Assembly (NCBI GenBank): GCA_001783805.1 | Contig: MFNS01000001.1 | Location: 342,921-406,920 of the forward strand | Direction of reading: 5' to 3' | Length of the DNA stretch: 64,000 nucleotides | Origin: Candidatus Levybacteria bacterium RIFCSPHIGHO2_01_FULL_40_16 | GTDB lineage: Bacteria > Patescibacteriota > Microgenomatia > Levybacterales > UBA12049 | Shown here: one piece after another, positions 1,578 through 52,903 of the stretch | How positions within the stretch are numbered: the first letter of the stretch is position 1 | How the letters are laid out: the number at the start of each line of letters is the position of its first letter | Notes under the pieces: model-generated | Database searches by the model: none | What the model was told of the DNA's origin: nothing | What the model saw: only the letters and a program-made list of their open reading frames with translations | Position numbers and translations under genes: made by a program

Positions 1578-1970
1578 GTGGCATTTAACAAGCTCACCCC
1601 AAAAGAAGCAGAAGTAATTGTAGGCAAGGGTACGGAACCGCCTTTCTCGGGAGAATATGACAAGTTTTACGAAAACGGCACTTTTATTTGCCGCAGGTGC
1701 AATGTTCCCTTATTTTCAGCAAAAAGTAAATTTGCTGCCGGATGCGGATGGCCGTCCTTTGACGAAAATTTTCCCAATGCCGTAAAACGGTTGCCGGACC
1801 CGGATGGACAAAGAACGGAGATTCAATGCGCCAATTGCCAAGCGCATTTGGGACATGTGTTTGAGGGAGAACATTTAACCGATAAAAACACCAGGCATTG
1901 CGTCAATTCTTTATCAATCCGTTTTGTTCCCGAAGGAAGGGAGCTGCCGAAAGTTTTACATGAAAAATAA
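1578..1970 (+). CDS. msrB: peptide methionine-(R)-S-oxide reductase MsrB
   Basis: CGWPSF, RTEIQCANCQAHLGHVF and RHCVNS motifs. Confidence 0.9.
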   Translation: MAFNKLTPKEAEVIVGKGTEPPFSGEYDKFYENGTFICRRCNVPLFSAKSKFAAGCGWPSFDENFPNAVKRLPDPDGQRTEIQCANCQAHLGHVFEGEHLTDKNTRHCVNSLSIRFVPEGRELPKVLHEK

Positions 1971-2529
1971 ATTGGAAACAGCAACACTTGCAGGCGGATG
2001 TTTTTGGTGTACGGAGGCAATCTTCAGAAGATTGAAAGGCGTAATATCTGTTTTGCCCGGATATGCGGGAGGAAATCCGCCAGCTGGCGGAAAAAATCCT
2101 TCTTATGCACAAGTTTGCTCCGGGAGTACGAGACATGCGGAATCTATTCAAATTGAGTTTGATCCTTCACTTCTTTCTTTTGAAAAAATCCTGGATATCT
2201 TCTGGCATACCCACAATCCCACGACTCTTAATCAACAAGGTAACGACATCGGCACACAATATCGATCGGCAATTTTTTACCACAATCAAAAGCAAAAAGA
2301 AATTGCCGAAAAATCAAAAACGGAATTTGAAGAAGAAAAAGTCTACCTGGATCCCGTTGTGACGGAAATTACTCCTTTCACAAATTTCTATATTGCTGAG
2401 AATTATCACAAAAACTATTTTGAGAGGAACAAAAACAAATCTTATTGTAATTTCGTAATTAACCCTAAAATACAAAAACTTCTCAAAAATTATGGAAATA
2501 TCATCAAGGAAGAATACAGACAATTTTAA
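1960..2529 (+). CDS. msrA: peptide methionine-(S)-S-oxide reductase MsrA
   Basis: GCFWC active-site motif. Start moved to the internal M (MKNKLETATLAGGCFWC), overlapping the msrB stop. Carries an in-frame NPPAGGK insertion. Confidence 0.9.
   Translation: MKNKLETATLAGGCFWCTEAIFRRLKGVISVLPGYAGGNPPAGGKNPSYAQVCSGSTRHAESIQIEFDPSLLSFEKILDIFWHTHNPTTLNQQGNDIGTQYRSAIFYHNQKQKEIAEKSKTEFEEEKVYLDPVVTEITPFTNFYIAENYHKNYFERNKNKSYCNFVINPKIQKLLKNYGNIIKEEYRQF
2074..2091. repeat. GC-rich 18-nt palindromic element, family 2 (AATCCGCCAGCTGGCGGA), in frame in msrA
   Basis: Encodes NPPAGG inserted between the conserved GYAGG and NPSY of MsrA. Confidence 0.8.
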
Positions 2530-3437: not shown

Positions 3438-3466
3438 GAATTTTTTTTGGGGGGGGTTGCAGCCGG
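3438..3466 (+). repeat. intergenic G-tract motif copy 2 (GAATTTTTTTTGGGGGGGGTTGCAGCCGG)
   Basis: Direct reading of the sequence; sits between convergent genes. Confidence 0.85.
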
Positions 3467-5605: not shown

Positions 5606-5640
5606 GAATGGGGGGGGTTGCAGCCGATTTTCTTATTTGC
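5606..5640 (+). repeat. intergenic G-tract motif copy 4 (GAATGGGGGGGGTTGCAGCCGATTTTCTTATTTGC)
   Basis: Direct reading; sits between divergent genes. Confidence 0.85.
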
Positions 5641-6410: not shown

Positions 6411-6441
6411 GGAATTTTAGAGGGGGGGGTTGCAGCCTGTT
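6411..6441 (+). repeat. intergenic G-tract motif copy 5 (GGAATTTTAGAGGGGGGGGTTGCAGCCTGTT)
   Basis: Direct reading. Confidence 0.85.
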
Positions 6442-7093: not shown

Positions 7094-7124
7094 GGAATTT
7101 TTTGGGGGGGGTTGCAACCGGTTT
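7094..7124 (+). repeat. intergenic G-tract motif copy 6 (GGAATTTTTTGGGGGGGGTTGCAACCGGTTT)
   Basis: Direct reading. Confidence 0.85.
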
Positions 7125-8118: not shown

Positions 8119-8172
8119 AGAATTTTTGGGGCGATTTTTTTTGAGGGGGTTGCAGCCGGTTTTTTTTATTTG
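8119..8172 (+). repeat. intergenic G-tract motif copy 7 (GAATTTTTGGGGCGATTTTTTTTGAGGGGGTTGCAGCCGGTTTTTTTTATTTGC)
   Basis: Direct reading; last copy of the array. Confidence 0.8.
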
Positions 8173-8264: not shown

Positions 8265-8528
8265 CTATTTTACAAATGATCTATAAACCTTTATAAAGAT
8301 ATAGCCGACTACCCAAGCTGTTATCGTAGATGAGATTAAACCTACGATAAATGCCGACATAGTTAAATTCCCAACGTCTAGCCTACTAAACTCAACGCCA
8401 TGAAACCATGATTGAGCGATAGCAAAAAATTCATTAGGAAATAAGCCCACCAACAGCCGACACAATACATAAATAATAGCCGTTGTAACTGCTAAGGCAT
8501 TTTGTATTGCGTATGATTGATTTTTCAT
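8265..8528 (-). CDS. small membrane protein, hypothetical
   Basis: 87 aa with two predicted TM segments. Confidence 0.4.
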   Translation of the reverse strand: MKNQSYAIQNALAVTTAIIYVLCRLLVGLFPNEFFAIAQSWFHGVEFSRLDVGNLTMSAFIVGLISSTITAWVVGYIFIKVYRSFVK

Positions 8529-8544
8529 AAATTTTCACCTCCTT

Positions 8545-8580
8545 TTGACATACACCCCCCAGGGGTATATACTATAATAT
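8545..8580 (+). promoter_or_regulatory. csoR promoter (-35 TTGACA) with a CsoR-type operator-like pseudopalindrome ACACCCCCCAGGGGTAT
   Basis: TTGACA at 8545-8550, GC-tract inverted repeat at 8551-8568, TATAAT at 8573-8578, start of csoR at 8583. Confidence 0.5.
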
Positions 8581-8582
8581 AT

Positions 8583-8852
8583 ATGAATAAAAATAAGGAT
8601 GTCAAGGGGCAAGCTCAAAAGCGTATCAATATTATCAAAGGACAGCTTGACGGTTTGCTTAAAATGATCGAAGAAGATAAATATTGTATTGATTTGCTCG
8701 ATCAAAGTTTAGCTATACAAAATTCAATCAAAAGTCTTGATGCGCTTATATTCGAAAAACATTTAGGAACACATGTCGCAGATCAATTCCGAAATGAAAG
8801 AGAAAAAGCAATCGCAGAACTGTTAAGATTATTTAAGAGGATTCATCAATAG
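8583..8852 (+). CDS. csoR: CsoR/RcnR-family metal-sensing transcriptional repressor
   Basis: DUF156 family length and conserved Cys/His (YCIDLL...HL) pattern; immediately upstream of a copper ATPase. Confidence 0.8.
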   Translation: MNKNKDVKGQAQKRINIIKGQLDGLLKMIEEDKYCIDLLDQSLAIQNSIKSLDALIFEKHLGTHVADQFRNEREKAIAELLRLFKRIHQ

Positions 8853-8866
8853 ATAGATAAATCTTT

Positions 8867-10948
8867 ATGAATGAAAAAACGTATACCTGCCCAATGGATC
8901 CGGATGTAATACGAGATACTCCTGGTAATTGTCCAAAGTGCGGAATGAAGCTTGTGCCTATAAACGCAGAGCATGAGGGGCACGAAAATCATGCCTCGAT
9001 GGAGAAAGATTTTAGAAAACGTTTCTTTATTACCTTACCTTTTGTTTTACTTATCATGCTTCTTTCGCCAAATATCCAAAAATGGTTGCATTTTAATGTA
9101 AATTTTCCAGGTATCGGATTGTTGCTTTTTGTAATAGGTGCTTTTATTTTCCTCTTTGGCGGAATACCTTTCTTTAAAGCAGCAAAAGGAGAATTATCGC
9201 AAAAAAATCCCGGAATGATGACTCTGGTAGCGTTTGCCATAGCTGTAGGATTTACTTTTTCAGTTGCCGCAACTTTCTTTTTTCCGGAAGAATCTCTTTA
9301 TTGGGAAATATCCACCCTTATCTCTGTTTTTTTATTAGGCCATTGGCTTGAAATGAGAGCGGTCAGGGGAGCAACAGGCGCTTTGGCAGAATTGACCAAA
9401 CTTATTCCCCCATCCGCTCATCTTATTAAGAATGGTGACATCACGGATGTTAAAACTAATCAATTAGTGATAGGCAATAGAGTTTTAGTTAAGCCGGGAG
9501 AAAAAATTCCGATTGACGGTACGATAATAGATGGAGAAAGTTCGGTTAATGAATCAATGGTTACCGGAGAATCAAGACCTATTAATAAGAAAAAAAACGA
9601 TAAGGTAATTGGAGGCACTATTAATCAAGACGGGTCGTTGACAATTGAAGTTGCCAAAACAGGAGCGGATACAGCCATCTCTCAAATCATGAAATTAATA
9701 CGGGAGGCCCAAGCTTCAAAACCCAATGTGCAACACTTAGCTGATAGAGCAGCCGGTGTCTTATTCTATATAGCTATTGTTGCCGGAACTGTTTCATTTA
9801 TTACCTGGGTATTTATTTTACCTCACGGAGTTGTTTTCGCAGCGACTGTGGCTGTGGCGGCAATTGTTGTCGCTTGTCCTCATGCGCTTGGACTAGCCAT
9901 TCCTACAGTTACCACGATTACTTCTACTCTTGGCGCTAAAAACGGAATTTTGATCAAGGATATGAAGGGACTGGAAATAGCCAGAAAATTGAATTATGTG
10001 GTGTTTGATAAAACAGGAACTCTGACAAAAGGAGAGTTCGGAGTAACTGACATTATTTTAAGCCAAAAATCGAGTATTAAAGATCAAGATGAATTTCTGA
10101 AATTAGCGGCCGCCGTAGAGGTTCAATCACAACACTCCATCGCTCAAGGAATCGTTAATCATGCTAGGAATAGAAAGCTAGAAATCCCGGATGTAAAAGA
10201 ATTTAAATCTTTTCCGGGTAAAGGAGCTACCGGAAAAATTGGTAATAAAAAAATTGTGGTTGGCAATAAAGCTTTAATGGAAGAATTAAAAATAAGGATA
10301 AATGAGAATGGTTGGAGAAGGAAGAGTAAGGCGAGTACGCCAGTTTTTGTTGCCATAGATAGCAAACTAGCCGGAGTAATACTTCTTGCTGATATAATCA
10401 GGGAAGAATCAAAAGAGGCGATTAAAAGACTTCACGACATGGGAATAAAAACAGCTATGCTTACGGGAGATACCCTTGATGTAGCCAGCGAGGTTGGAAA
10501 ACAACTTAATCTGGATACTGTTTTTGCCCAAGTTTTACCTGAGGATAAGGTTAATAAGGTTAAGCAATTGCAAAACGAAGGGAATATTGTAGCTATGGTG
10601 GGAGATGGTGTTAATGATGCTCCGTCTCTTACTCAATCCCACGTTGGAATTGCCATAGGCGCGGGGACAGATGTCGCAGTTGAATCGGCAGACATCGTGC
10701 TCATGAAAAATGATCCAATGGATGTAGTCAAAGCAATATCTTTAAGCCGAAAAACTAATACCAAAATGGTTCAGAATCTAATCTGGGCAACCGGCTATAA
10801 CGTCTTTGCTATCCCAACAGCGGCAGGAGTGCTCTATCCGTCATTTGACATCTTGCTTCGGCCCGAATGGGCTGCTCTTTTGATGAGCGCATCATCAATT
10901 ATTGTGGTTTTTAACGCTCTTCTGTTAAGACGGGCAAAATTGAATTAA
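8867..10948 (+). CDS. copB: copper-translocating P1B-type ATPase (CPH motif, CopB-like) with N-terminal YHS/TRASH-like metal-binding domain
   Basis: DKTGTLT, CPH (ACPHALG) and GDGVNDAP motifs; 8 TM helices. Confidence 0.9.
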   Translation: MNEKTYTCPMDPDVIRDTPGNCPKCGMKLVPINAEHEGHENHASMEKDFRKRFFITLPFVLLIMLLSPNIQKWLHFNVNFPGIGLLLFVIGAFIFLFGGIPFFKAAKGELSQKNPGMMTLVAFAIAVGFTFSVAATFFFPEESLYWEISTLISVFLLGHWLEMRAVRGATGALAELTKLIPPSAHLIKNGDITDVKTNQLVIGNRVLVKPGEKIPIDGTIIDGESSVNESMVTGESRPINKKKNDKVIGGTINQDGSLTIEVAKTGADTAISQIMKLIREAQASKPNVQHLADRAAGVLFYIAIVAGTVSFITWVFILPHGVVFAATVAVAAIVVACPHALGLAIPTVTTITSTLGAKNGILIKDMKGLEIARKLNYVVFDKTGTLTKGEFGVTDIILSQKSSIKDQDEFLKLAAAVEVQSQHSIAQGIVNHARNRKLEIPDVKEFKSFPGKGATGKIGNKKIVVGNKALMEELKIRINENGWRRKSKASTPVFVAIDSKLAGVILLADIIREESKEAIKRLHDMGIKTAMLTGDTLDVASEVGKQLNLDTVFAQVLPEDKVNKVKQLQNEGNIVAMVGDGVNDAPSLTQSHVGIAIGAGTDVAVESADIVLMKNDPMDVVKAISLSRKTNTKMVQNLIWATGYNVFAIPTAAGVLYPSFDILLRPEWAALLMSASSIIVVFNALLLRRAKLN

Positions 10949-14199: not shown

Positions 14200-14740
14200 T
14201 CGTTTCCATAAAGGTTTTTATTTTAACCTCATCAATTGCCTGAAGTTTAAGTAATCTCCCCCACGAGGTTAGAGCTATTGAAACATCCATCGTAGCATGG
14301 GGAACCATAATTTTTTTGCTAATTGAAACCGAATTAAAAATTTGTTTTAAGCGTTCAATATCTTGCTTAGATAAGCCATTGTACCAAAGTATGACTGCTC
14401 CATGTTCCATGCTGTGTATCAGATTTCCGTCCGGCACGCTCTTGTCATAAATACCGGCCTTTGCAGAAAGGGCATAATGAGAGCCTCCGGTAGGCGGATT
14501 GGTAAGATAAGTTACTAAAGTGCCTTCCGGTACGTGATTTGCCCCCTGGTCGGCGATGGCATCTCCCACCAAAGGTTTACTCAATTTCGCCTCTTCTTTA
14601 GCACCATTACTCCCTAAAAGCCATACGCCTCCGCCAAGGATAACAACGGTAATTATGATAATTGATATTGTTACCTTCAAACTCCGCAGCCTCCTTTTTG
14701 CTGGGGCGGCGGCGCAACTATGCCATTTTCCGTTAGCCAT
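14165..14740 (-). CDS. DUF3105-like membrane-anchored protein
   Basis: HSMEHGAVILWY-type motif; the start may lie downstream of 14740 (overlap with the next gene). Confidence 0.5.
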   Translation of the reverse strand: MANGKWHSCAAAPAKRRLRSLKVTISIIIITVVILGGGVWLLGSNGAKEEAKLSKPLVGDAIADQGANHVPEGTLVTYLTNPPTGGSHYALSAKAGIYDKSVPDGNLIHSMEHGAVILWYNGLSKQDIERLKQIFNSVSISKKIMVPHATMDVSIALTSWGRLLKLQAIDEVKIKTFMETNENRAPEKAPL

Positions 14741-17795: not shown

Positions 17796-18276
17796 TCCAC
17801 GGTGACAAAAATCTATCCAAACCGATACCCCCCGCAGTTTTTCCTGCCAGCATTATGAAAATTTGAAGAATCAGCAATGTCGGGTTGGTGCTGACGGTTC
17901 CGGCGTAAAGATAATTCATATTCATGAATGCTCCGAAAAATGCGGCAATTCCCGTAAATGCGCCTAGAATTAAGCCAATCCCTACAAAAAGTTCCCCGTA
18001 GGAAACCAAATAGGAAAAAATGACGGAATTTGGCAGCGCTACTGTCTTTATGAAATCCGCATACCAACTTGCAACTTGTGGATGTGCACCTGTTGTCTTG
18101 GCCAGTGAACCGGCCAAAAAACCGCTTACTGCTACTCCGGCTTTTGCTCCAACCCAGACAGGATCGATTATTTTTTCCCATCCTGCAGTAAGCCATGCCC
18201 ACCCGACATAAATTCTTATTAAAAGCCACAACCAGGAAAGTTTGGGGTTTGAAAAGAAACTGGAATTTTTTTCCAT
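17767..18276 (-). CDS. DoxX-family membrane protein
   Basis: RIYVGWAWLTAGWEKI signature; four TM helices. Confidence 0.7.
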   Translation of the reverse strand: MEKNSSFFSNPKLSWLWLLIRIYVGWAWLTAGWEKIIDPVWVGAKAGVAVSGFLAGSLAKTTGAHPQVASWYADFIKTVALPNSVIFSYLVSYGELFVGIGLILGAFTGIAAFFGAFMNMNYLYAGTVSTNPTLLILQIFIMLAGKTAGGIGLDRFLSPWIASRKYGAK

Positions 18277-18416
18277 ATTTTGACAACCTCCTTTCTTTGA
18301 TATCTCTTCTCCACCTTTTCTACAAAAAGAGTGCTACTATAATTATCTTACGCCATTTTTCTTTTAAATTGCAACCTCCGCGAATCGGCTGATGATCCTG
18401 GTCTTTTTGATTAGCC

Positions 18417-19052
18417 TCATCGATATGCATCAAGAATTTTTATTACATCTTTATCTTTAACTTGCGCAAAGCTATCGTAATATGACCCGACTGCCCCGAG
18501 GAATTTATCATCAGATGGAATCTCAAGCGCAATTAGCTCGTCTGCCTCTTTCCTCAAAATTTTTGCAGTTGATCTGGGAACGACCGGAACAGCAACGATA
18601 AGCTTTGCAGGATTATAATGTTTAATTTCCATAATGCCAACCCGAAGCGTTAAGCCGGTTGCTACGCCATCATCAACAACAACAGCTATTTTCCCCTTAG
18701 CAGATGTCATTTTTTTTCCATGCAGATATTTCTTTCTTCTTCTTGCTACCTCCAGACGTCCTTTCTTCATTTCTCTTTCCAGCCAATCTTCACCAACCAG
18801 CGCTAATTCTCTTGGGGTACCGACAATATGCCCATTTTCTGCTGTTGCCGCAATGGCGTATTCGGGATTATCCGGATGGCTAATTTTTCTGGTGATTACC
18901 AAATCCAGAACAGCATGAAGATTTCTGGCTATTTCAACTGCGGTTAGAACACCACCCCTAGGGATAGCGTAAACCACCACATCTTTATCGGCATACCCCT
19001 TTAGTTTATCTGCCAGCAATTGTCCGGCCTGTATTCTATCTTTAAATCTCAT
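18417..19052 (-). CDS. phosphoribosyltransferase-family protein
   Basis: PRPP-binding VVDDGVATGLT motif; start moved to the internal Met. Confidence 0.75.
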   Translation of the reverse strand: MRFKDRIQAGQLLADKLKGYADKDVVVYAIPRGGVLTAVEIARNLHAVLDLVITRKISHPDNPEYAIAATAENGHIVGTPRELALVGEDWLEREMKKGRLEVARRRKKYLHGKKMTSAKGKIAVVVDDGVATGLTLRVGIMEIKHYNPAKLIVAVPVVPRSTAKILRKEADELIALEIPSDDKFLGAVGSYYDSFAQVKDKDVIKILDAYR

Positions 19053-19360
19053 ATTTCTCCTTTGCGATAAAAATACGCTAACCAATATTAGCATACTTTT
19101 TGTAATTTAGATTATAAATGTAAGCTTGCGAAGCCTACCTCAACCGGATTGTCTGATAAATGTCCAGATGCTGTCAAGCTATCTTTGCAATTGTCAGGTA
19201 AAATAGTTTTATATGAACGAAGAGGATAGGAAATATTTAAGATCGGTAAAAAAACTAAGACCAAGCCTTGAGGTTTTCAAAAGAATGGTGCAAATCCTGA
19301 AGGGCGTACAGCAAAAAACAGATCAGATGCTAAAAACGCTGGTCTGACAGTTGTTTTCAT

Positions 19361-20551
19361 TTACTCATAGCGCAAGGCTTGGATTGGATCAAGTTTTGAG
19401 GCGCGGACCGCCGGAGCAACACCAAAAACGATTCCGACTATCATCGAAAATCCAAAAGACAATAGAACTGACCACCAGGTGATCGTTGTCTGTAGGAAAT
19501 TATTAATCAAAAGCGAAAGTAATATTCCCAAAACTATTCCGATTATTCCTCCTATGCCGGACAGCGTCACTGCTTCGATCAAAAATTGATTTCTGATATC
19601 CTCGGTTTGGGCTCCCAAGGCTTTTCGCAGGCCGATTTCCCTGGTTCTTTCCGTCACCGAAACCAGCATTATGTTCATAATTCCGATTCCTCCGACAATC
19701 AAAGAAATTGCGGCAATTCCTCCAAGACCCAAAGTCAAAACATTTGTAACGGTTGATATTGTAGATAGGGCCTGCTCCTGAGTTAAGACGCTAAAATCAT
19801 CTTCGGTTAATCTTTTATTTAATATCGCTTTTGCTTTGGCTTGTATGTCTTTGACGTTTTCCGCTTTTAGCGCATTTATATAAATAGTATTGGGACTGGT
19901 AATTCCAAATTGTTTTTGGGCGCTGGTTAACGGAATTAAAACAGAATTATCCTGATCTATGCCAAAGATTGATCCTCTGGAACCTGCAATTCCGATAACC
20001 ACATAATTTATTCCTGCAATCTTTATGGTCTGATTCAGAGGGGACGCTGTCCCAAAAAGATTTTTTACGACCGTTGCTCCAATGACCACTACTCTTCTTC
20101 CGCTGGTAACGTCCGCTTCATTAATAAATCTTCCTTTCTCCGTTTTCAAGCTAATTATTTTTTCGTAATTCGCCTGGACTCCGAAAATGGCTGCTCCTTT
20201 ATCGTTGATATTTAATCTTTTCAAAGTGCCTGTTTTTTGCACAACAGCGCAAACTTGCGCATCCTGTCTTAATTTATTTTTAAGATTTATCGCATCTGCA
20301 AAAGTTAATCGGTTTGCCTGGACTCCGCCCGGAGATCTTGATCCGCCTATTCTTCCCGGAACCACAATAACCAAATTGGAACCAAGACCGGCGATCTGTT
20401 TGGTAATGGTTGTTTTAAGCCCCGAAACCAAAGAGGTTAAAAGAATTACCGACAAAACCCCGATCATAATTCCCAAGATCGTTAAGAACGCCCTCATTTT
20501 ATTGGCCAGAATCGCTGCCATTGCCACCCTGAATGTTTCCAAATGATTCAT
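19361..20551 (-). CDS. ABC transporter permease, MacB/FtsX family
   Basis: N-terminal TM segment, large periplasmic domain, C-terminal FtsX-like 3-TM bundle. Confidence 0.85.
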   Translation of the reverse strand: MNHLETFRVAMAAILANKMRAFLTILGIMIGVLSVILLTSLVSGLKTTITKQIAGLGSNLVIVVPGRIGGSRSPGGVQANRLTFADAINLKNKLRQDAQVCAVVQKTGTLKRLNINDKGAAIFGVQANYEKIISLKTEKGRFINEADVTSGRRVVVIGATVVKNLFGTASPLNQTIKIAGINYVVIGIAGSRGSIFGIDQDNSVLIPLTSAQKQFGITSPNTIYINALKAENVKDIQAKAKAILNKRLTEDDFSVLTQEQALSTISTVTNVLTLGLGGIAAISLIVGGIGIMNIMLVSVTERTREIGLRKALGAQTEDIRNQFLIEAVTLSGIGGIIGIVLGILLSLLINNFLQTTITWWSVLLSFGFSMIVGIVFGVAPAVRASKLDPIQALRYE

Positions 20552-24796: not shown

Positions 24797-25483
24797 TTAA
24801 ATCTTCTGACCGAGGATTATGGTTACAGGAACCAAGGCATCTACAGGTAATTCTTCTTCCTTAACTGTAAAAGAATTTTCAAGAACGGTTTTTAACTTAT
24901 TTAGAAAATCTTTATCCACTGCTTTTTTGGCTTTTATAATAGTATCCGTATAATCGGAATTGTCCGCATTGCCAACCGAGGACACTGTAAATCCTTCTGC
25001 CTCCAAATTGGTTTTTTGCCTTCCGGCTTCTCCATCTACACCGCTTCCATTTAGTATTTCTATTTCATATTTAGTAAAATCTATTGTTTTTGTAGGCTCG
25101 GGCGTAATTGTCGGAGTTGGACTCGAAGTTGCCACATTGATTTTTTCTCCCTTAAATATCCCTTGTTTATAAATAAAAATCCCAACAAATAGAGCTATCG
25201 CTATAATAAAAATGAAAAATATTGGCCACATATAATTCTTTTTGGGGGTGTTGCCGGATCCCAGAGATTCTTCCTTAATCATCTTTTCCTTAAAGTCGCT
25301 TAGCGCGTCCGCGGATGAAGCCCGTGAGGCAGGAACGTCGTCGACTACCTCTATATTCTCTGTCGTTTTAGTTACCACGTCGGAAATAACTACTGGTTCC
25401 TTCGGCTCGCCGGAGCCTTTGGCGGAGGAGGCTGTTTTTATTTCTTCAGGCTTTGCCTCGTGTTTCTTATGGACAGAAGTCAT
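24797..25483 (-). CDS. LytR_C-domain membrane-anchored protein
   Basis: C-terminal EILNGSGVDGEAGRQKTNLEAEGFTV typical of the LytR C-terminal domain; central TM helix. Carries the family-1 in-frame element. Confidence 0.6.
   Translation of the reverse strand: MTSVHKKHEAKPEEIKTASSAKGSGEPKEPVVISDVVTKTTENIEVVDDVPASRASSADALSDFKEKMIKEESLGSGNTPKKNYMWPIFFIFIIAIALFVGIFIYKQGIFKGEKINVATSSPTPTITPEPTKTIDFTKYEIEILNGSGVDGEAGRQKTNLEAEGFTVSSVGNADNSDYTDTIIKAKKAVDKDFLNKLKTVLENSFTVKEEELPVDALVPVTIILGQKI
25398..25434. repeat. GC-rich element, family 1 copy (CCTTCGGCTCGCCGGAGCCTTTGGCGGAGGAGGCTG), in frame in the LytR_C gene
   Basis: Encodes ASSAKGSGEPKE. Confidence 0.8.
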
Positions 25484-25991: not shown

Positions 25992-27035
25992 TTATTTTAA
26001 ATATTTGTCGAAAAAGTCAACGGAGCGCTGGATGGCAGTGTTAAAATTATTGGCAAGATTATGGTCATCCCCCCGGTAAATAAAGAGTTCCGATATCTTC
26101 CCCATTGCTTTTAATTCTTTATCAAGTTTTTCCGAAAATGCTATTGGAACAGATGCGTCCGCTGTCCCGTGATGCAGTTGAATTGGTCCGGACACATCTT
26201 TAAGGTAGGCGTTTGCAGAAATTGAATTCCAAAAGTTTGGATTTTCCGCTGGTGTTCCAAATTGCGCAACCAAAAGATCTCTCCACCTTCGTGCGCCGGC
26301 TGACAAAGGCGGCGGAGTAAAGGTTGATCTTCTCCAGTTATAAATCAAGTCAGGATAAGAAGCGACTACTCCACCCCAAATTACCCCTGCTTTTATATCT
26401 TTGGAAATTACCATTGAGCGAAGCGTGATAAATCCGCCCATCGAATGCCCCCACATGCCGATGCGATTCACATCAGCATCTTCAAACTTTTTAATTGAGG
26501 CAACCGCATTAAGAACATCTATCGTATATGCCGGTGAGCCATATCCGCCTATGGCTTCCCCTTCCGAATTTCCGTGCCCGCGATAATCGGATTTTAAAAC
26601 TATATAACCGTTCCTGGAAAAAGCATCCGCATACGCGATATATTTTCCCGTAGTTGAATACTCTTTTGGCGAAATGTAGCCATGGTTAAAAATGATAACC
26701 GGCCAACTTCCGCCGGCTGGCGGATTTCCAAAAGGCACAGTTAATAAAGCATAAATTTTCAACCCGTCTGATTTATATGAGGCAATATATTTATTATAAT
26801 TCGATCCACTCTGGAGAGTTTGCTCGATAGTAATTTCACTGCCCGGATATTCCTGGGAACGCATATACTCAATTGAAAGAGGATAAGGAGAGTCTACAAC
26901 TTCGCCTCTATCCTCAAGATTATTTAAGCTATCCGCAGAGTTAGTGGATTGATTTTTTTGTGATTTATTCTTAAAAACTATCAACGCGGAAATTAATATT
27001 ATTGCGATTCCTATTGCAATAATTAATCTTTTCAT
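25992..27035 (-). CDS. exported alpha/beta hydrolase (S9 peptidase / dienelactone-hydrolase-like)
   Basis: GxSxG elbow GMWGHSMGG; N-terminal signal/TM segment. Carries an in-frame NPPAGGS palindromic element. Confidence 0.75.
   Translation of the reverse strand: MKRLIIAIGIAIILISALIVFKNKSQKNQSTNSADSLNNLEDRGEVVDSPYPLSIEYMRSQEYPGSEITIEQTLQSGSNYNKYIASYKSDGLKIYALLTVPFGNPPAGGSWPVIIFNHGYISPKEYSTTGKYIAYADAFSRNGYIVLKSDYRGHGNSEGEAIGGYGSPAYTIDVLNAVASIKKFEDADVNRIGMWGHSMGGFITLRSMVISKDIKAGVIWGGVVASYPDLIYNWRRSTFTPPPLSAGARRWRDLLVAQFGTPAENPNFWNSISANAYLKDVSGPIQLHHGTADASVPIAFSEKLDKELKAMGKISELFIYRGDDHNLANNFNTAIQRSVDFFDKYLK
26709..26726. repeat. family 2 palindromic element (TCCGCCGGCTGGCGGATT), in frame in the alpha/beta hydrolase
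   Basis: Encodes NPPAGG on the minus strand. Confidence 0.75.
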
Positions 27036-29877: not shown

Positions 29878-30483
29878 CTATCCTGCTGCGCCTCGGAACA
29901 TTTCTGTTTTGTTTTGCTCTCTCACAATCGCCAACGGAGGCGGTTTTTTCGCTTCTTTTTGCTGCAAGTCCTGCATTTCTTTGTTTTTCTCCTGCTCTAC
30001 TTTTTCTGCGGGCCTTTCTTCTCCGCCGGCCGGCGGATTTTTTGGATTAAATGTCGGATCATAATAAACGTCTTTGTGCAATTGATTTCGCAACTCTATC
30101 AGCCTTTTTTGCTCTTCAAGAGTTTTGTCGGCAATCTGCTCTTGAAATTCGCTCGGTTTTTTACCCTCCACCGTTGCCTGCTTATTGGTTTTCAAACTTC
30201 CATCCTGCGACATGTCCGACTTGCCATAAAGATCCTTTAAAAATTTAATCCGTTCTTCATCCGATTGCCACTGCTTTTGCTTTGGCTCACTCGCCTCGCT
30301 GGAGCTTTGACGAAGCGGGCCGAAGTCCTCAGCGGAAGCGGCAGGCTTGGCTATCCCAACTTGTCCGGCTAAATCTTGTGCAATTTCTTCAGGTATTTTT
30401 ATAGCCTGTTTTGCGGTCTGTTTCGCAGTTTGTCCGAGCTGATTAAGCGCCCCTCCCAAAATTGTCGTATCATCCATATTCAA
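29878..30483 (-). CDS. hypothetical charged low-complexity protein
   Basis: 201-aa ORF rich in K/E/Q; carries an in-frame NPPAGGEE palindromic element. Confidence 0.4.
   Translation of the reverse strand: MNMDDTTILGGALNQLGQTAKQTAKQAIKIPEEIAQDLAGQVGIAKPAASAEDFGPLRQSSSEASEPKQKQWQSDEERIKFLKDLYGKSDMSQDGSLKTNKQATVEGKKPSEFQEQIADKTLEEQKRLIELRNQLHKDVYYDPTFNPKNPPAGGEERPAEKVEQEKNKEMQDLQQKEAKKPPPLAIVREQNKTEMFRGAAG
30022..30039. repeat. family 2 palindromic element (TCCGCCGGCCGGCGGATT), in frame in the hypothetical gene
   Basis: Encodes NPPAGGE on the minus strand. Confidence 0.75.
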
Positions 30484-33322: not shown

Positions 33323-34807
33323 TTACCTATTTTTTAATTCTATTTCTATTTTAACATTTTTTTTCGTAATTCCTCTTAGGGCATTTTCCAATACTTCTTC
33401 AGTTTTAACTTCGCTAAGTTTGTCTTTATGAAATTTAAAATTTGTCTGCAATAATAATTTTTTACCATCGTAGCTTTTTATACTGCATCCGCGCAAAACT
33501 CCGGCTATAGAATGATTGTAGGTTTTTACTTTATCTACTAAAGCAGTCCACAAAGCATCATGCTCGCTATAATTTGAAATCCCCTGCTGGACGATATTAA
33601 TCGTTTCTTTTTTTATATCTAGTCGAGGGGTGGCGCGACTGGAGGGCGTCCCGTCGAGTGACCGCAGGGGGCTTGCGACCGAGGACGTCGGACGGGACGA
33701 AGGAGCGACAGGACCCCGAACTGATGAAGTATGGTCCGCCCCAACAGCGACTGAACACCATTCGACAATCACTAATTCCAATGGCAATTGGGGAAGCACT
33801 GCATATTTCAGCTCACTTTTTGCTTTTGCTAATAATTCAATCAGTCTTTTTATTTCTCCTATTTCTAATTTTGAATTATCCATTACGAGCACCGAATTAT
33901 CTTCTGAAAATTCCACTCCCGCTTTAAAAAGCAAACTATTATGTAAAGTTTCTATGAGCCCCTGCATGAAATACCCCATCTCAACCCCCTCGCTTGCGAG
34001 CTTTGCGACTATTCCCAATCCCCCCTTCGTATCTTTTTCTTCCAAAGATTTTATCATTTGGGCTATTTGATATTGTGTGCTGGCAATTGAATAATTTTTC
34101 TCGACCAATTCTTTGGTGATTTTTTTATTCTTGGCTAGCGTTACTATTTCTTCCAGAATTTTCGCTCCATCCCTAAAGCTTCCATCCGAAAGATTAGCAA
34201 TTAAGCGTAGGGCATCTTCCTCTGCTTCCAAATTTTCTTTTTTAATTATTTTCCCAAATGAACGGACCAGCTCTTCCTCGGTTGCTCTTTTAAATTGTAT
34301 GCGTAAACAGCGCGATATTATTGTGCCGGGAACTTTGTGGGGTTCGGTTGTACAAAGGATAAAAACCACGTGGCTTGGCGGCTCTTCCAAAGTTTTAAGA
34401 AGCGCATTGAAAGCCTCCGTAGTTAGCATGTGAACTTCATCAATAATGTAAACTTTTCTGGTCGCGCTCATTGGAGACAATTTTACTTTCTCACGAAGAT
34501 CGCGGATTTCATCTATTCCTCTATTTGATGCGCCGTCTATTTCCAGAATATCCATATTCGTTCCATTGGTTATGGATACGCATTGCTCGCATTTGTTGCA
34601 CGGCTCGATACCCTTTGTTTTCTTTTCGCAATTCAGGACTTTTGCGACAATTCTGGCTGTTGACGTTTTTCCCAAACCCTTAGAACCCGTAAAGAGAAAC
34701 GCATGCGGAACCGATGAGCTTTCCAGAACATTGTAAAGTTTTTCGCGAACTTCTTTGCTGTCAAGCTCTTCTATTTTTTGCGGACGATATTTCCGATAAA
34801 AAACCAT
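33323..34807 (-). CDS. dnaX: DNA polymerase III subunit gamma/tau
   Basis: Walker A GSKGLGKTST, zinc module CNKCEQC, clamp-loader domains. Contains a GC-rich in-frame linker insertion. Confidence 0.9.
   Translation of the reverse strand: MVFYRKYRPQKIEELDSKEVREKLYNVLESSSVPHAFLFTGSKGLGKTSTARIVAKVLNCEKKTKGIEPCNKCEQCVSITNGTNMDILEIDGASNRGIDEIRDLREKVKLSPMSATRKVYIIDEVHMLTTEAFNALLKTLEEPPSHVVFILCTTEPHKVPGTIISRCLRIQFKRATEEELVRSFGKIIKKENLEAEEDALRLIANLSDGSFRDGAKILEEIVTLAKNKKITKELVEKNYSIASTQYQIAQMIKSLEEKDTKGGLGIVAKLASEGVEMGYFMQGLIETLHNSLLFKAGVEFSEDNSVLVMDNSKLEIGEIKRLIELLAKAKSELKYAVLPQLPLELVIVEWCSVAVGADHTSSVRGPVAPSSRPTSSVASPLRSLDGTPSSRATPRLDIKKETINIVQQGISNYSEHDALWTALVDKVKTYNHSIAGVLRGCSIKSYDGKKLLLQTNFKFHKDKLSEVKTEEVLENALRGITKKNVKIEIELKNR
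33621..33765. repeat. ~145-nt GC-rich imperfectly palindromic element inserted in frame inside dnaX
   Basis: GC content far above the flanks; inverted segments CGTCCCGTCG ... CGACGGGACG; encodes a Pro/Ser/Arg-rich linker (GADHTSSVRGPVAPSSRPTSSVASPLRSLDGTPSSRATPRLD). Confidence 0.6.
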
Positions 34808-35469: not shown

Positions 35470-35847
35470 TTAGGCGGACATCTCTGCAGCTTTACCCAGA
35501 GGTCCCATGAGATGGAGGTGTAAATGATCTATAATTTGCGCTCCCCCTCCATTGATGACAACACGATAGCCTTTATTTTCAAGCTTCTGCTCCTTAATCA
35601 TTTTCTGGATTACTTTTGTAAGCTTAATCATTAATCCCTGCCCGCCATTGGCTTCGCTTTCAGGCGATGGCGGGCGGGCTTTATCATTCATCATTAATAA
35701 ATCTCCAAGGTGTTTTTTGGGAATAATTAATAAATGAACAGGTTTTAACGGATGAATGTCGGGAAAAACCATAATATTAGCATCTTCGTATGTAAATTCC
35801 TTCGGAATAATTCTGTCTCTGATTTTGCAAAATATGCAAGACTTCAT
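35470..35847 (-). CDS. HIT-family protein
   Basis: Histidine triad DHLHLHLMG. Confidence 0.85.
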   Translation of the reverse strand: MKSCIFCKIRDRIIPKEFTYEDANIMVFPDIHPLKPVHLLIIPKKHLGDLLMMNDKARPPSPESEANGGQGLMIKLTKVIQKMIKEQKLENKGYRVVINGGGAQIIDHLHLHLMGPLGKAAEMSA

Positions 35848-35848
35848 T

Positions 35849-36790
35849 TTAAATTTTCTCCAACACTTTTATTATTTCTTTAATCCCCAGCTTGCTTGGA
35901 CGCATTTTTGGATTTTTGACTGATCCATTGAGAAGCATTTTTTTTCCAACATGCAGAAACCAGGTGGCATCCGGATCCAGTTTTTTCAGCTTTTCATAAA
36001 CAGGGGTCAAGTCTATATTTATTTTGCCGATGACAGGCACGGCTTTGATGCGGATGTACCCCTTTCTCGGATCTTTTCTTAAAACGATTACATAGCCCAT
36101 CTTTTGAGATAATTTGATAACCGTATCGTTTAAAGTTTCAAAGCCAATTCCTTTTCCAAATTGAGTGGTAAACTTTTGGCCATTTTCTCTGATTTCTTTT
36201 TCCGCCCAGATTCTATTTTCAAATTCGTGCAAAACCGCGTCTAATCCCTTGCTCACAAATTCAACATAATAATCATCCTGATTGGGAAATTGAAATTTAA
36301 GTCCATCCAAAATGCTTGTCAGATTAAACTCATGATAGTCTGCAACTGCATCTTTCCAAAATACTTCCTTAAAATGATCAATATCTACAATTACTCCAAT
36401 CATTCTGGAGATCGCTTCTGTTTTGCTCTTTATTTTGTCATTCTGAATTCTGAATTCTGAATTCTGAATTCTGACGTAATCCCAGGTTAGACTCGCACCG
36501 CAGACTTTGTCCGATACGGTCTGGTGATGATCCAAAGGTCCCAAACCCGTATCAACATGAATTACCTCGTCATCCTCAATGACTTCAATTGGAGACGCTT
36601 CATTTCCATTTTTCCATTTTCCGCTGTCAATCCGTTCCCCTGCCGGTACAAATCTTACAGTTGCAGTTTCCCATCCCGGTAAAAACTTTTTAATTAGCCA
36701 AACTGAAGTAATTGCATCCATATCCGGAGACGTATGCGTCACAACAATTTTCATGCTTTCAAGTATACAGCAGTATCCTCTACTTGACAA
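35849..36790 (-). CDS. DHH-family phosphoesterase
   Basis: Motif I/II VVTHTSPDMDAITS and motif III LDHHQT. Contains an in-frame heptamer repeat tract. Confidence 0.6.
   Translation of the reverse strand: MSSRGYCCILESMKIVVTHTSPDMDAITSVWLIKKFLPGWETATVRFVPAGERIDSGKWKNGNEASPIEVIEDDEVIHVDTGLGPLDHHQTVSDKVCGASLTWDYVRIQNSEFRIQNDKIKSKTEAISRMIGVIVDIDHFKEVFWKDAVADYHEFNLTSILDGLKFQFPNQDDYYVEFVSKGLDAVLHEFENRIWAEKEIRENGQKFTTQFGKGIGFETLNDTVIKLSQKMGYVIVLRKDPRKGYIRIKAVPVIGKINIDLTPVYEKLKKLDPDATWFLHVGKKMLLNGSVKNPKMRPSKLGIKEIIKVLEKI
36441..36474. repeat. (TGAATTC)n heptanucleotide tandem repeat, 4.5 copies, inside the DHH esterase CDS
   Basis: TTCTGAATTCTGAATTCTGAATTCTGAATTCTGA; encodes RIQNSEFRIQN. Confidence 0.8.
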
Positions 36791-36822
36791 ATTATTGAAA
36801 ATAAAAGACTATATTAATATCT

Positions 36823-37269
36823 ATGGATCCGCAAAAACTGTCTCAATTAGATCCCAAATTAAGAGAAGCTTATCAGCGCGTCATGGGGACCACGATTCCA
36901 ACGCCCCCGGCCGCCCCCATTCAAACGCAAGCTCCTCCGCCGTCAATTCCTTCTGACCCGACCCAAATTCCGCAGCCTCAACCGATAATAAATCCGCAGT
37001 CTCAAGCTGTTCCAATGCCAGAGTCGGTCCCTACACAACCGGCCACTAATTTCGTTCAGATGAATTCCGAAGTGCCGGCTCCTGCTCAAAATTTTACAAC
37101 TCCACCCCCAATGCCTCTAGCACAAACTATGGCTGTAAAAAAGAAAAGCGGAATAATAATGCCAATCTTGTTCGGATTTGCGGCTTTGGTTTTTATTGCA
37201 ATTTACACTCTTTTCTGGACAAAAATCTTCAATTTCAATCTTCCCTTCAAGCTCCCCTTTTTACCCTAA
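36823..37269 (+). CDS. proline-rich protein with C-terminal TM anchor, hypothetical
   Basis: PxxP-rich low-complexity N-terminus; hydrophobic C-terminus. Confidence 0.4.
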   Translation: MDPQKLSQLDPKLREAYQRVMGTTIPTPPAAPIQTQAPPPSIPSDPTQIPQPQPIINPQSQAVPMPESVPTQPATNFVQMNSEVPAPAQNFTTPPPMPLAQTMAVKKKSGIIMPILFGFAALVFIAIYTLFWTKIFNFNLPFKLPFLP

Positions 37270-44854: not shown

Positions 44855-45739
44855 TTAAGACTTTTTACTTTTTGTTTTTGTTTTTGCTTCTTTTTCAGCT
44901 TTCTTCTTTGGCTCGCCGGAGCCTTTGGCGGAGGCGGCTGCAGCCCTGGCCGCTTCTTTTTCTGCCTTAATCTTGGCTTTCTCCGCTTCTACCGCTGTCT
45001 TTTTTACTTCTTCTTCTCTAATCCTGATTCCTTCTTTTCTTCCTTCAATCCAAGCGTCAATAATGTAAGAGACTATTAATTTAATCGAACCAACCGCGTC
45101 GTCGTTGGCCGGAATCGGATAATCGATAATTGACGGGTCCGCATTGGTATCAACCAGAGCGACTGTCGGAACATGGGTTACCAAAGCCTCCCTAACTGCC
45201 AAATTTTCCAAGTGAGAATCAATTATGAAGAGGCAATCTGGCTTTTTGGTAATTTTCGCAACTCCGCCATAAAGATTCTCCAATTTGTTTTTTTCTTTTT
45301 CCCATCCGCCGACTTCTTTTTTTGTGTACCTTGATTTTACTTCGTCATCTTGTAAATCGGTGACGAAATCCGCGTATTTCTTAAAATTCTTGGAGACTTC
45401 CTGAAAATTCGTCAAAAGTCCGCCCACCCAACGGTTGGTAATGTAGAAAAGGTTCTCGCCTGAATTCTCACCTGCAGAAGCCCTTTTTACTTCCTCCTCA
45501 ACTATTGTTCTGGCTTGTCTTTTCGTACCAACAATAACCAGTACGCCGTTTTTGGCGGCTAAATCTCGGATAAAGGCAGCGGCCTCTTCCAAGCCTGCCT
45601 TTGTTTTGGCAAGATCAATAATGTGAATGTTATCACGGGCTTCAAAAATAAAATCCCGGGCTTTGGGGTTACTGCGGGTGACTTGGTGGCCAAAATGGCA
45701 ACCGGCTTCCAATAATTCTTCCAGCGTAATTTCTCTCAT
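44855..45739 (-). CDS. rpsB: 30S ribosomal protein S2 with Lys/Ala-rich C-terminal extension
   Basis: Conserved S2 core; the C-terminal tail includes the family-1 in-frame element. Confidence 0.95.
   Translation of the reverse strand: MREITLEELLEAGCHFGHQVTRSNPKARDFIFEARDNIHIIDLAKTKAGLEEAAAFIRDLAAKNGVLVIVGTKRQARTIVEEEVKRASAGENSGENLFYITNRWVGGLLTNFQEVSKNFKKYADFVTDLQDDEVKSRYTKKEVGGWEKEKNKLENLYGGVAKITKKPDCLFIIDSHLENLAVREALVTHVPTVALVDTNADPSIIDYPIPANDDAVGSIKLIVSYIIDAWIEGRKEGIRIREEEVKKTAVEAEKAKIKAEKEAARAAAASAKGSGEPKKKAEKEAKTKTKSKKS
44905..44940. repeat. GC-rich element, family 1 (TCTTTGGCTCGCCGGAGCCTTTGGCGGAGGCGGCTG), in frame in the rpsB tail
   Basis: Near-identical copies at 25398-25434 and 52246-52281; encodes AAASAKGSGEPK. 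Confidence 0.8.
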
Positions 45740-52030: not shown

Positions 52031-52543
52031 TTATTTTTCCAAGTCCAGAAACTTATATTTATACCCTTCGGATTCCCCCGCTTTTTCAGATATGACTGCT
52101 TTAAACTCCGAATAATCCGGAAAAAAAGTATCCGCTTCGGAGTCTCCACCAGCTGGCGGATCAATTATCGTTAAATAAAGTTTGTCCACTAATCCTTTTT
52201 TAATCGCCTGGTCATAAATCTGTCCACCTCCAATAATAAATATTTCCTTTGGCTCGCCGAAGCCTTCGGCGGAGGCGGCTGCTTTTTTAATCGATTCTTC
52301 AATTGAATTGCAAACGACAGCGCCTTCCGCCTTAAATTTAGCGTCTCGCGTTATAACAATGTTATAACGTTTTGGTAAAGGTTTTGTCGGCAGAGATTCC
52401 CAAGTTTTGCGACCCATGATAACCGGATGCCCCTTTGTGATATTTCTAAATCTTTGCAAATCTTCTTTGATGTGCCACAGCAACTTATTGTCTTTTCCCA
52501 ATTCCCGATTTTTCCCAATCGCCGCAATCGCACTTACTTTCAT
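52031..52543 (-). CDS. folA: dihydrofolate reductase
   Basis: N-terminal IAAIGKNRELG; GRKTWESLP and GGGQIY motifs. Carries two in-frame GC-rich insertions (family 1 and family 2). Confidence 0.9.
   Translation of the reverse strand: MKVSAIAAIGKNRELGKDNKLLWHIKEDLQRFRNITKGHPVIMGRKTWESLPTKPLPKRYNIVITRDAKFKAEGAVVCNSIEESIKKAAASAEGFGEPKEIFIIGGGQIYDQAIKKGLVDKLYLTIIDPPAGGDSEADTFFPDYSEFKAVISEKAGESEGYKYKFLDLEK
52145..52162. repeat. family 2 palindromic element (TCCACCAGCTGGCGGATC), in frame in folA
   Basis: Encodes DPPAGGD inserted between IID and EADTFFP of DHFR. Confidence 0.75.
52246..52281. repeat. GC-rich element, family 1 copy (CCTTTGGCTCGCCGAAGCCTTCGGCGGAGGCGGCTG), in frame in folA
   Basis: Encodes AAASAEGFGEPK, inserted before EIFIIGGG. 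Confidence 0.8.
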
Positions 52544-52609: not shown

Positions 52610-52903
52610 ATGCGAAGAAAGTTAATTTATTATATTTACATCTTAACAAATAAATACAATACAACTTCCTATATTGGTGTTACCAACAGTATTTTCAAAA
52701 GACTTTTTGAACATAAATTTGGCTTGATGGAAGGTTTTACAAAAAAATATAAAACCAAAAAACTTGTGTATCTCGAGGAGTACAGCGACATTAAAGAGGC
52801 TATTGCCCGAGAAAAACAATTAAAAAATTGGCATAGAGACTGGAAGATAAATTTGATTAAAAAAGCAAATCCTAAATTTGAAGATATGTCTGTTTTCGAT
52901 TAA
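52610..52903 (+). CDS. GIY-YIG nuclease-family protein (stand-alone, ~97 aa)
   Basis: YIYILTN ... YIGVTN ... R..EH GIY-YIG catalytic motifs. Confidence 0.75.
   Translation: MRRKLIYYIYILTNKYNTTSYIGVTNSIFKRLFEHKFGLMEGFTKKYKTKKLVYLEEYSDIKEAIAREKQLKNWHRDWKINLIKKANPKFEDMSVFD

Follow-up and report, generated by a model that had tools for sequence, protein, structure and literature searches.

Four unrelated genes of Candidatus Levybacteria bacterium RIFCSPHIGHO2_01_FULL_40_16, a member of the Candidate Phyla Radiation (CPR, or Patescibacteria), carry in frame the same G+C-rich word of 16 nucleotides (nt). They lie in a stretch of 64,000 nt (contig MFNS01000001.1, positions 342,921 to 406,920; hereafter the window), which has a G+C content of 39%. 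The host genes are msrA (PF01625), a gene encoding an S9/alpha-beta hydrolase, a conserved hypothetical gene whose product has no Pfam match, and folA, which encodes dihydrofolate reductase (DHFR, PF00186). We found the four copies where a first-pass annotation had placed them, all in long open reading frames (ORFs), and list them with the other features in Table 1. Their consensus is TCCGCC-(A/G)GC(T/C)-GGCGGA. As had been proposed, each lies in a coding sequence and is translated as (N/D)PPAGG, i.e., as NPPAGG in msrA (AAT CCG CCA GCT GGC GGA), in the hydrolase gene (AAT CCG CCA GCC GGC GGA) and in the hypothetical gene (AAT CCG CCG GCC GGC GGA), and as DPPAGG in folA (GAT CCG CCA GCT GGT GGA).

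The copies are far more numerous than expected. With up to two mismatches, TCCGCCNGCNGGCGGA was matched four times in the window versus 0.06 times expected, and none of 100 dinucleotide shuffles reached four matches. The peptide PPAGG was also seen four times, versus 0.01 expected for a window of 17.6 thousand codons. The addition of 16 kb beyond the window revealed no further copy, which gives a density of four per 80 kb, or around one per 20 kb. The remark that the palindromic core gives PPAGG on both strands holds, in one frame each. We rejected the idea that the orientation of the copies is set by the replication strand: copy 1 is opposite to copies 2-4 on one replichore, along which the GC skew is monotonic, and the orientation therefore follows the gene.

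Table 1. Positions of the 16-nt word, of related repeats and of other features. Positions refer to the window unless a locus (L) is named.
Feature	Position	Strand	Context	Remarks
Copy 1, TCCGCCAGCTGGCGGA	2076-2091	+	msrA, ORF 1960-2529 (+)	perfect 16-nt palindrome
Copy 2, TCCGCCGGCTGGCGGA	26709-26724	-	S9/alpha-beta hydrolase gene 25992-27035 (-)	centre GGCT, non-palindromic
Copy 3, TCCGCCGGCCGGCGGA	30022-30037	-	conserved hypothetical gene 29878-30483 (-)	perfect 16-nt palindrome
Copy 4, TCCACCAGCTGGCGGA	52145-52160	-	folA 52031-52543 (-)	one arm mismatch (TCCACC), G-T wobble on coding strand
NPPTGG look-alike, AATCCGCCTACCGGAGGC	14483-14500		DUF3105 protein	first 8 nt same as the word
Long hairpin, 52 nt, AAAGCCCGCCCGCCAT-CGCCTGAAAGCGAAGCCA-ATGGCGGGCAGGGATTAA = ARPPSPESEANGGQG	35631-35682	-	HIT-family gene 35470-35847 (-)	in frame
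Match to 5' arm of long hairpin, AAAGCCTGCCCGCCATC	61464-61495		Pro_CA_2 gene (-)	16/17 nt identical
Second palindrome, CCTGCCTGCCGGCAGGCAGG	L013 132-151; L019 405-424; L086 1074-1093; L052 134; L074 3656; L076 1965; others		other CPR loci	20 nt
Second in-frame G+C-rich repeat, CTCGCCGGAGCCTTTGGCGGAGG	25399-25425; 44914-44940; 52255-52284; 30319-30333 (weaker)
G+C-rich island, 75 nt	33622-33696		dnaX-like gene 33323-34807	linker SRPTSSVASPLRSLDGTPSSRATPRL
G-tract motif, five copies	3448-3466; 5609-5627; 6420-6439; 7104-7121; ~8143-8160	+	mostly in or at edge of spacers	T-run, G5-G8, TTGCA(G/A)CC
CsoR/RcnR-type repressor gene	8517-8852
Copper ATPase gene	8867-10948
GIY-YIG nuclease genes	52610-52903; L264 12897-13151; L264 17647-17901			97, 84 and 84 aa
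Tandem ATTCTGA, five units	36438-36472		overlap of ORFs 35849-36790 (-) and 36579-36956 (+)
Stretch without called genes, ~2 kb	L264 ~17900-19860		just past right end of window	rich in GC hairpins

The codons of Pro (CCN) and Gly (GGN) are complementary, and any PPAGG peptide therefore makes 10 of the 14 core bases palindromic. Since the codons of PPAGG are largely self-complementary, the case for a repeat at the level of DNA rests on third codon positions, on other reading frames and on non-coding copies. Two sites in the window resemble the word in sequence. A suspected fifth copy near position 63187, in an FBP aldolase/phosphatase gene, proved to be native: it aligns without gaps to solved homologs (QGDWPAPGE versus QHGLPALGE). 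The NPPTGG look-alike is presumably a native motif of the DUF3105 family and not a copy.

Comparisons with homologs indicate that the word was added to three of the four proteins. The PDB alignments bear out the view that conserved regions of MsrA and DHFR are split by the insert, with clean four-residue gaps in both. In MsrA, this gap is found relative to all solved structures (GYANGNT----KNPSY). GG and NPxY are separated by three residues in 114 of the 120 homologs listed and by seven in the window; among these 120, the five homologs with seven residues have IPPAGGE, NPPVGGE, NPPADGE or, twice, NPSADGE. The closest homolog listed (L206, 84% identical) is insert-free and reads AAT GTC AAG at the place of AAT CCG CCA GCT GGC GGA AAA in the window.

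The region has six residues (D[AG]xFDA) in 104 of around 115 DHFR homologs, versus ten in the window. Besides two with much longer inserts, the forms exceeding six residues are DPPAGGDSEA (window), DPPAGGGFDA (twice), DSPPAGGFEA, DAPSADGF[DE]A (twice) and DPPDGKTGFDA. In the AlphaFold model of the window DHFR, the insert (PPAGGDSEAD) lies in the coil after strand 121-128, in a block whose local pLDDT (predicted local distance difference test) averages 66, versus a model mean of 87. We take this coil to be the F-G loop in the numbering of the Escherichia coli DHFR.

An exhaustive profile-free search for the hypothetical protein retrieved 194 relatives. All 89 aligned representatives have NP-xKxQ-EERPAEK and none has the peptide, whereas the window protein has NP-KNPPAGG-EERPAEK and is three residues longer. 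The hydrolase differs from these three cases. In 98 of 111 homologs its native loop, xGxxPxxG ahead of WPVIIFNHG, has eight residues; the window loop has nine, a net gain of one residue. This native loop already resembles the motif, and PPAGG was found at the same loop in nine homologs, with a length of eight or nine residues.

On these alignments the copies in MsrA, DHFR and the hypothetical protein are lineage-specific additions, and that in the hydrolase does not qualify as a clean insertion. The claim that the copies are inserted and not ancestral is thus upheld for the former three and not supported for the hydrolase, which has a motif-like native loop and a relative (L266) where the word leaves the length unchanged. 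Indels of six to seven residues had been anticipated; those we observed are smaller, with net gains of four residues in MsrA and DHFR, three in the hypothetical protein and one in the hydrolase. Overall, the initial observation is partly confirmed and its interpretation partly supported.

We scanned the GTDB, using one genome per species (185,579 species genomes), with the pattern AATCCGCCNGCNGGCGGA. At least 57 of the 120 loci listed are from CPR bacteria, which make up an estimated few percent of the bases in such a collection. The range of classes is wide: Saccharibacteria, seven Microgenomates groups, numerous groups of Parcubacteria, Berkelbacteria and also Kerfeldbacteria. This enrichment is confined to CPR and is not shared by the other AT-rich genomes covered by the scan. 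Matches in high-G+C viruses and bacteria were mostly in the IRQLA(D/E) frame and looked like ordinary background. We found 55 matching stretches in viral contigs, where the high-GC ones were again in this frame; there was no signal of CPR phages and we rejected a phage origin.

The flanks of 62 oriented CPR copies contain at most 0.4 bit per position. Given such information-poor flanks, the unit is the 16-mer (18 nt with the flanking A/T). The copies had been described as perfect palindromes of 18 nt: a palindromic word does exist, but the conserved unit is shorter and only copies 1 and 3 of the window are perfect. The free centre positions of the 62 copies are A53/G9 and T47/C11/A4, i.e., nearly always purine...pyrimidine, and among the centre codons CCT is absent and GCA is found in few copies.

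The copies occur in several reading frames and also outside genes. ORFs of at least 120 aa contain 43 of 59 CPR copies, of which 29 are in the PPAGG frame, nine in the SASWR frame and five in the IRQLAD frame (p = 5e-6 versus equal thirds); the matches outside CPR are split 7/10/12 over the same frames. The remaining 16 copies are outside any such ORF, and we took them as intergenic. We rejected known RNA genes as an explanation for these non-coding copies: Rfam gave nothing overlapping the 13 of the 16 that were scanned, and their gene contexts are mixed. Two orthologous GT4 glycosyltransferases around 50% identical (L099 and L062) carry the 16-mer at one alignment position, read as NPPAGG in one and as SASWRI in the other. 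Third positions are also shared across distant proteins. The DHFRs of L124 (58% identical to that of the window) and L139 (49% identical, from an organism with 50% G+C) both spell the insert GAT CCG CCA GCT GGC GGA, and the neighbouring synonymous sites differ. The L139 sequence came from a metagenome scan with a DHFR alignment, in which the matches listed were mostly distant DHFRs.

The repeated unit is a DNA word and not a peptide, because third positions are shared, other frames are used, copies exist between genes and orthologs carry the word in different frames. This bears directly on an alternative explanation, in which PPAGG has no meaning at the DNA level and is either a peptide motif under selection or a chance result of codon bias. 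In its favour, every copy of the window is read in the PPAGG frame, Pro and Gly are most often encoded by CCG and GGA in the window, and loops rich in Pro and Gly are common. In the genome scan, Asn precedes PPAGG in around 22 cases versus 5, a count conditioned on the search pattern, and this excess can be explained by loops that tolerate Asn better than Phe or Leu. Yet, the excess of PPAGG over expectation in the window, the third positions common to DHFRs only 49-58% identical, the ortholog site filled in different frames and the decay of the peptide after its arrival all speak against this explanation, which we regard as very improbable. Its peptide-only form is refuted by the out-of-frame and intergenic CPR copies.

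The copies might alternatively have arisen locally, by template switching during replication (quasi-palindrome formation) at the codons of Gly-Gly or Asn-Gly turns, their likeness being that of the products that survive in loops. Copies do adjoin Gly codons that are native (in N-G and D-G turns), P..GG was present beforehand in the hydrolase loop, the GGAGGA upstream in msrA can pair with the left arm, and the PPAGG peptide by itself dictates the 10 of 14 core bases mentioned above. However, the arms are always GGCGGA/TCCGCC, when Gly-Gly can be spelled in 16 ways (GGC and GGA are 20% and 47% of the Gly codons). Identical 16-mers are found between genes and in other frames, insert-free orthologs lack a half-site, and the enrichment is absent from the other AT-rich genomes of the scan. 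We therefore see little chance that local template switching produced the family.

More than 20 different host proteins carry the word in other CPR genomes. It lies in loops or tails of many conserved ones, e.g., CysRS, DnaX, ParB, the zinc ribbon of TopA, TsaD, RecJ, MetK, the 5'-exonuclease of PolA, Pth, SecA, and the C-terminal tail of DnaK (twice in one protein). PDB alignments show a four-residue gap in MetK, SecA and ParB of other CPR genomes, and by our own count the DnaX of L077 has 11 residues between NC and EPCNKCE, versus seven in the window DnaX. The commonest net addition is 12 nt. The exceptions are the hypothetical protein and the L139 DHFR (+3 aa), the window hydrolase (+1) and the L266 hydrolase (0).

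The additions recur and turn over. In a neighbour-joining tree of 120 DHFRs, built with the insert masked, each insert-bearing sequence is next to an insert-free one, and at least four MsrA lineages with an insert likewise stand beside insert-free nearest relatives. The position of the DHFR insert shifts by one to two codons between lineages (D|PPAGG, DS|PPAGG, DAD|PPAGG), which argues for separate events. The occupied loops are bounded by conserved blocks: LYLTxID...DTFFP, GYxGG...NPxY, LLTVP...WPVIIFNHG and YYDPTFNP...EERPAEK. Only one of the four window sites, that of the hypothetical gene, is shared with relatives at around 80-85% protein identity. Its ortholog in a related Levybacterium (L262) reads AAT CCG TCA GCT GGC GGA, and differs at 3 of 15 nt, versus 9 of 57 in the flanks, with the innermost pair changed from G-C to A-T. 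C-to-T changes recur at the symmetric position 5/12 of the word, a hint that a cytosine there may be methylated. Among MsrA copies, we found the drifted variants NPPVGG, NPPADG and NPSADG. The PSADG form occurs in MsrA and in two different DHFRs of one sample; if spelled CCGTCAGCTGACGG, a spelling that is not confirmed, it would be a compensated palindrome.

The 16-mer is accompanied by other G+C-rich hairpins. The HIT-family gene of the window contains a 52-nt hairpin in frame (DNA folding energy -17.7 kcal/mol, z = -4.96), where its product is 10-12 aa longer than solved HIT proteins. The core of its stem, CCGCCA/TGGCGG, is that of the 16-mer, and this shared stem suggests that the two may be kin. 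Another Levybacterium (P0159) has a near-identical peptide, ARLPSPEGEANGGQG, inserted in its DHFR, at the loop that bears PPAGG in the window. A stretch matching the 5' arm of this hairpin could be a copy of the long element that has decayed; its reverse complement gives NRDGGQA in the Pro_CA_2 gene, and it adjoins a separate hairpin with 6-bp arms, TCCCGATTCGATCGGGA.

In 423 kb of CPR loci the dominant G+C-rich hairpin arms are TCCGCC, for which the search selected, and CCTGCC, for which it did not. The latter belongs to a second palindrome, CCTGCCTGCCGGCAGGCAGG, which is mostly intergenic. Of the CPR loci retrieved with the first motif, at least 11 contain it, often at 8-130 nt from a TCCGCC...GGCGGA copy. 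The two palindromes are found in one 510-aa ORF of L076. The Pth of L094, which carries NPPAGG, has an Ala/Gly/Leu/Pro-rich C-terminal tail, AGLPAGLPAKALASAGARRAKAGE, that resembles translated copies of the second palindrome.

The window has a further in-frame repeat, CTCGCCGGAGCCTTTGGCGGAGG, with copies identical at 25 of 27 nt. It is translated as (A/S)SAKGSGEPK, both in a LytR_C protein and C-terminally in the ribosomal protein S2 (rpsB). A variant in DHFR, SAEGFGEPK, is a seven-residue insertion relative to solved structures and has perfect 8-bp arms (CGCCGAAG/CTTCGGCG). The (A/S)SAKGSGEPK repeat folds no better than its shuffles. The island of very high G+C content in the dnaX-like gene, which encodes a Ser/Pro/Arg-rich linker (folding z of -1.95), may be another inserted G+C-rich segment.

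We tentatively favour, while giving it slightly less than an even chance, the interpretation that the copies are very small palindromic repeats, akin to repetitive extragenic palindromic (REP) elements and Rickettsia palindromic elements (RPE), of which new ones arise by templated short-patch copying. The word would be a 16-nt hairpin- or cruciform-forming member of a family of palindromic repeats that proliferates in CPR genomes, possibly a loop-less relative of the longer hairpin elements with the same stem. An existing copy would be copied to a new place, mostly with a net addition of 12 nt, by a short-patch process that is gene-conversion-like or hairpin-mediated and distinct from classical cut-and-paste transposition. 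It would persist where it does little harm, i.e., between genes or, within genes, in surface loops and disordered tails, with Pro-Pro-Ala-Gly-Gly as the best tolerated frame, and would then decay in a neutral-like manner. The identity at the nucleotide level, the independence from frame, the character of the insertions, their patchiness and decay, the family context and the enrichment are all in line with such repeats.

Several observations weigh against repeats of this type. The net changes of 0, +1, +3 and +4 aa are not what an inserted unit of fixed length predicts, and in the L266 hydrolase a perfect 16-mer sits at native loop length (AAT GGT GAT CCG CCA GCT GGC GGA TGG), where another relative has CAA GGA GAA AAA CCA AGC GGG GGA TGG. 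We found no target-site duplication, conserved flank or tag at the 62 CPR copies, and no transposase-like gene among the ORFs of the window (around 80 kb of a genome of around 1 Mb were covered). Selfish repeats normally diverge between lineages, whereas the same 16 nt are found in Saccharibacteria, Microgenomates, Parcubacteria and Berkelbacteria. The density of four copies per 80 kb is low. Finally, within each of three protein families a single loop is used, which is stricter than random insertion followed by tolerance. The cases of neutral or variable length, the lack of transposon hallmarks, the invariance across the super-phylum and the recurrence at one loop are thus poorly fitted by repeats, and are better fitted by a functional word.

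In such an explanation, which we regard as less probable but take seriously, a DNA word tied to conserved CPR machinery accumulates by selection or molecular drive. It could be the site of a dimeric DNA-binding protein or of a methyltransferase, perhaps in a nucleoid-organising role, or a self-recognition signal for DNA uptake and recombination. Any mutation, indel or recombined patch creating the word would be favoured, the word would settle where its peptide is tolerated, and alleles would pass laterally from one related lineage to another, with the conserved blocks on either side of the loops serving for short-patch homologous recombination. Besides the radiation-wide identity of the 16 nt, the variable net lengths (none at all in L266) and the repeated use of one loop between two highly conserved blocks, this explanation would account for PSADG in MsrA and two DHFRs of the same sample, which is dialect-like (under the unconfirmed spelling), and for the G-C/A-T covariation of the innermost pair between orthologous hypothetical-gene copies. 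Uptake sequences show a frame bias like that of the 16-mer. In L074 a copy lies in parB, beside parA, and that locus is without a canonical parS. There is also a precedent in HIP1 (highly iterated palindrome 1) of cyanobacteria, a selected phylum-wide palindrome that is recognised by methylases and aids natural transformation (PMC5861425; bioRxiv 10.1101/2024.09.10.611283). Explanations of this type have been put forward for HIP1 and also for uptake sequences.

On the other hand, point mutation cannot yield an exact addition of 12 nt, so that templated copying is still needed; under either of these two explanations such an addition must therefore be templated from another copy. Constraint on the sites is weak: one in four is shared at around 80% identity, that one evolves about like its flanks, and the MsrA copies decay. 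The density of around one per 20 kb is low, known uptake sequences being at least ten times denser. At least two unrelated palindromes co-occur with longer hairpins, which has the look of a population of repeats, and we saw no DNA methyltransferase or candidate binding protein in the window. A bolder version, which we judge unlikely, is that CPR bacteria actively write the 16-bp palindrome by templated short-patch conversion, as a tag of self-recognition at the scale of the super-phylum that serves in DNA uptake, recombination or chromosome handling. The in-frame PPAGG loops of essential enzymes would then be its visible footprint in episymbiotic cells that scavenge DNA.

Comparison with known systems places the word close to several of them. 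RPEs are palindromic repeats found in frame in unrelated, often essential genes of a reduced genome, with a peptide segment tolerated by the fold, several families and also intergenic copies (PMC10969869). The parallel drawn with them in the first-pass annotation stands, as in-frame palindromic DNA occurs in the four window genes and in the more than 20 CPR host proteins, with gaps of +3 to +4 aa. RPEs are nevertheless set apart by their description: they have around 100-150 bp, occur solely in Rickettsia and code for a peptide that is conserved and has tens of residues, whereas the 16-mer adds at most 12 nt net, extends across a super-phylum, occupies the same loop in independent lineages and is sometimes length-neutral.

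REP elements are accompanied by REP-associated tyrosine transposases (RAYT) and by clusters known as bacterial interspersed mosaic elements (BIME). They are multicopy, short G+C-rich palindromes, of which a genome has several types, and they cluster in operon spacers and form hairpins (PMC3733652). They differ from the 16-mer in having 20-40 nt and a GTAG/CGTC tag, in being extragenic by definition and specific to a species or genus, and in their association with a RAYT gene. The tag is absent at the 62 CPR copies, all four window copies and the 43 of 59 CPR copies mentioned above are intragenic, and no Y1_Tnp match was found in the window ORFs or the genes called in the flanking loci (around 80 kb of a genome of around 1 Mb). 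Miniature inverted-repeat transposable elements have 50-500 bp, terminal inverted repeats and a target-site duplication, whereas the 16-mer is one palindrome with no consistent flanking repeat.

HIP1 (GCGATCGC) is over-represented throughout a phylum and is mostly intragenic, in tolerated frames; its function was long unknown and has been linked to methyltransferases, chromosome structure or natural transformation (PMC5861425; PMC4390886; bioRxiv 10.1101/2024.09.10.611283). The 16-mer shares with it the strong over-representation, both in the window (4 versus 0.06) and in the at least 57 of 120 listed loci from many CPR classes. However, HIP1 has 8 nt, reaches more than one copy per gene and is conserved between orthologs, hence the inference of selection, whereas the 16-mer has around one copy per 20 kb, is often an addition of 12 nt and turns over quickly between relatives. 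We found no conservation of ortholog sites beyond neutrality (one of four sites shared, 3/15 versus 9/57 nt) in this small sample. The DNA uptake sequences (DUS) of Neisseria and the uptake signal sequences (USS) of Pasteurellaceae are short lineage-wide words, enriched in genes in tolerated frames, with dialects, that spread by recombination. They are non-palindromic, with around one copy per kb, and a bias in uptake has been demonstrated for them; the 16-mer is palindromic and has four copies per 80 kb.

The GC clusters of yeast and the 'byp' elements are likewise small G+C-rich palindromes in AT-rich mitochondrial genomes. In sponge mitochondria, repetitive G+C-rich hairpin-forming elements invade AT-rich compact genomes, including coding regions (PMC2800124). 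These elements are organellar and usually have 30-60 nt or more, and byps are skipped by the ribosome, whereas the 16-mer copies are multiples of three and presumably translated.

Two known functional sites were rejected. The 16-mer is unrelated to the parS consensus TGTTNCACGTGAAACA, and canonical parS is absent from the window and from all loci; ParA and ParB of L074, used as probes, revealed no other locus with them. Intrinsic terminators do not fit, as only copy 3 is followed by T6, on the antisense strand, and the intergenic CPR copies have no T-runs and mixed contexts. Neither palindrome string was found in the literature searched, where PPAGG is not reported as a peptide motif of this kind, and our search on palindromic in-frame insertions in CPR found nothing relevant. 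Overall, the word acts like RPE and REP elements but differs from the former in size and taxonomic range, and from the latter in having no tag, in its mostly intragenic location and, within the around 80 kb covered, in the lack of a RAYT gene. The chance that it represents something less ordinary is real.

Other features of the window and its flanks are of separate interest. Five copies of a G-tract motif lie within 5 kb, just upstream of the genes of a CsoR/RcnR-type repressor and of a copper ATPase, and the copy at 7104 includes a perfect palindrome, GGTTGCAACC. Operators with G/C tracts are characteristic of this repressor family, and the copies may be its operator sites. Three small stand-alone GIY-YIG nuclease genes are found in 20 kb, one of them directly beside folA and thyA; the two that encode 84 aa are around 50% identical, and this multiplicity suggests selfish or mobile nuclease genes. 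A tandem of five ATTCTGA units lies where two ORFs overlap. Just past the right end of the window, the stretch without called genes probably represents a gene for a structured RNA.

If real, the 16-mer would be the smallest of the known repeat elements that add residues to proteins, and the first repeat or motif shown to be common to the CPR, a group that accounts for much of bacterial diversity and whose genome biology is hardly known. A single 16-mer would give a testable handle on how these tiny genomes exchange, mark or organise their DNA. The recurrent, homoplastic four-residue indels in markers such as DHFR, MsrA, SecA, MetK, ParB, DnaX and DnaK can mislead protein alignments, phylogenies and structure-based annotation of CPR bacteria.

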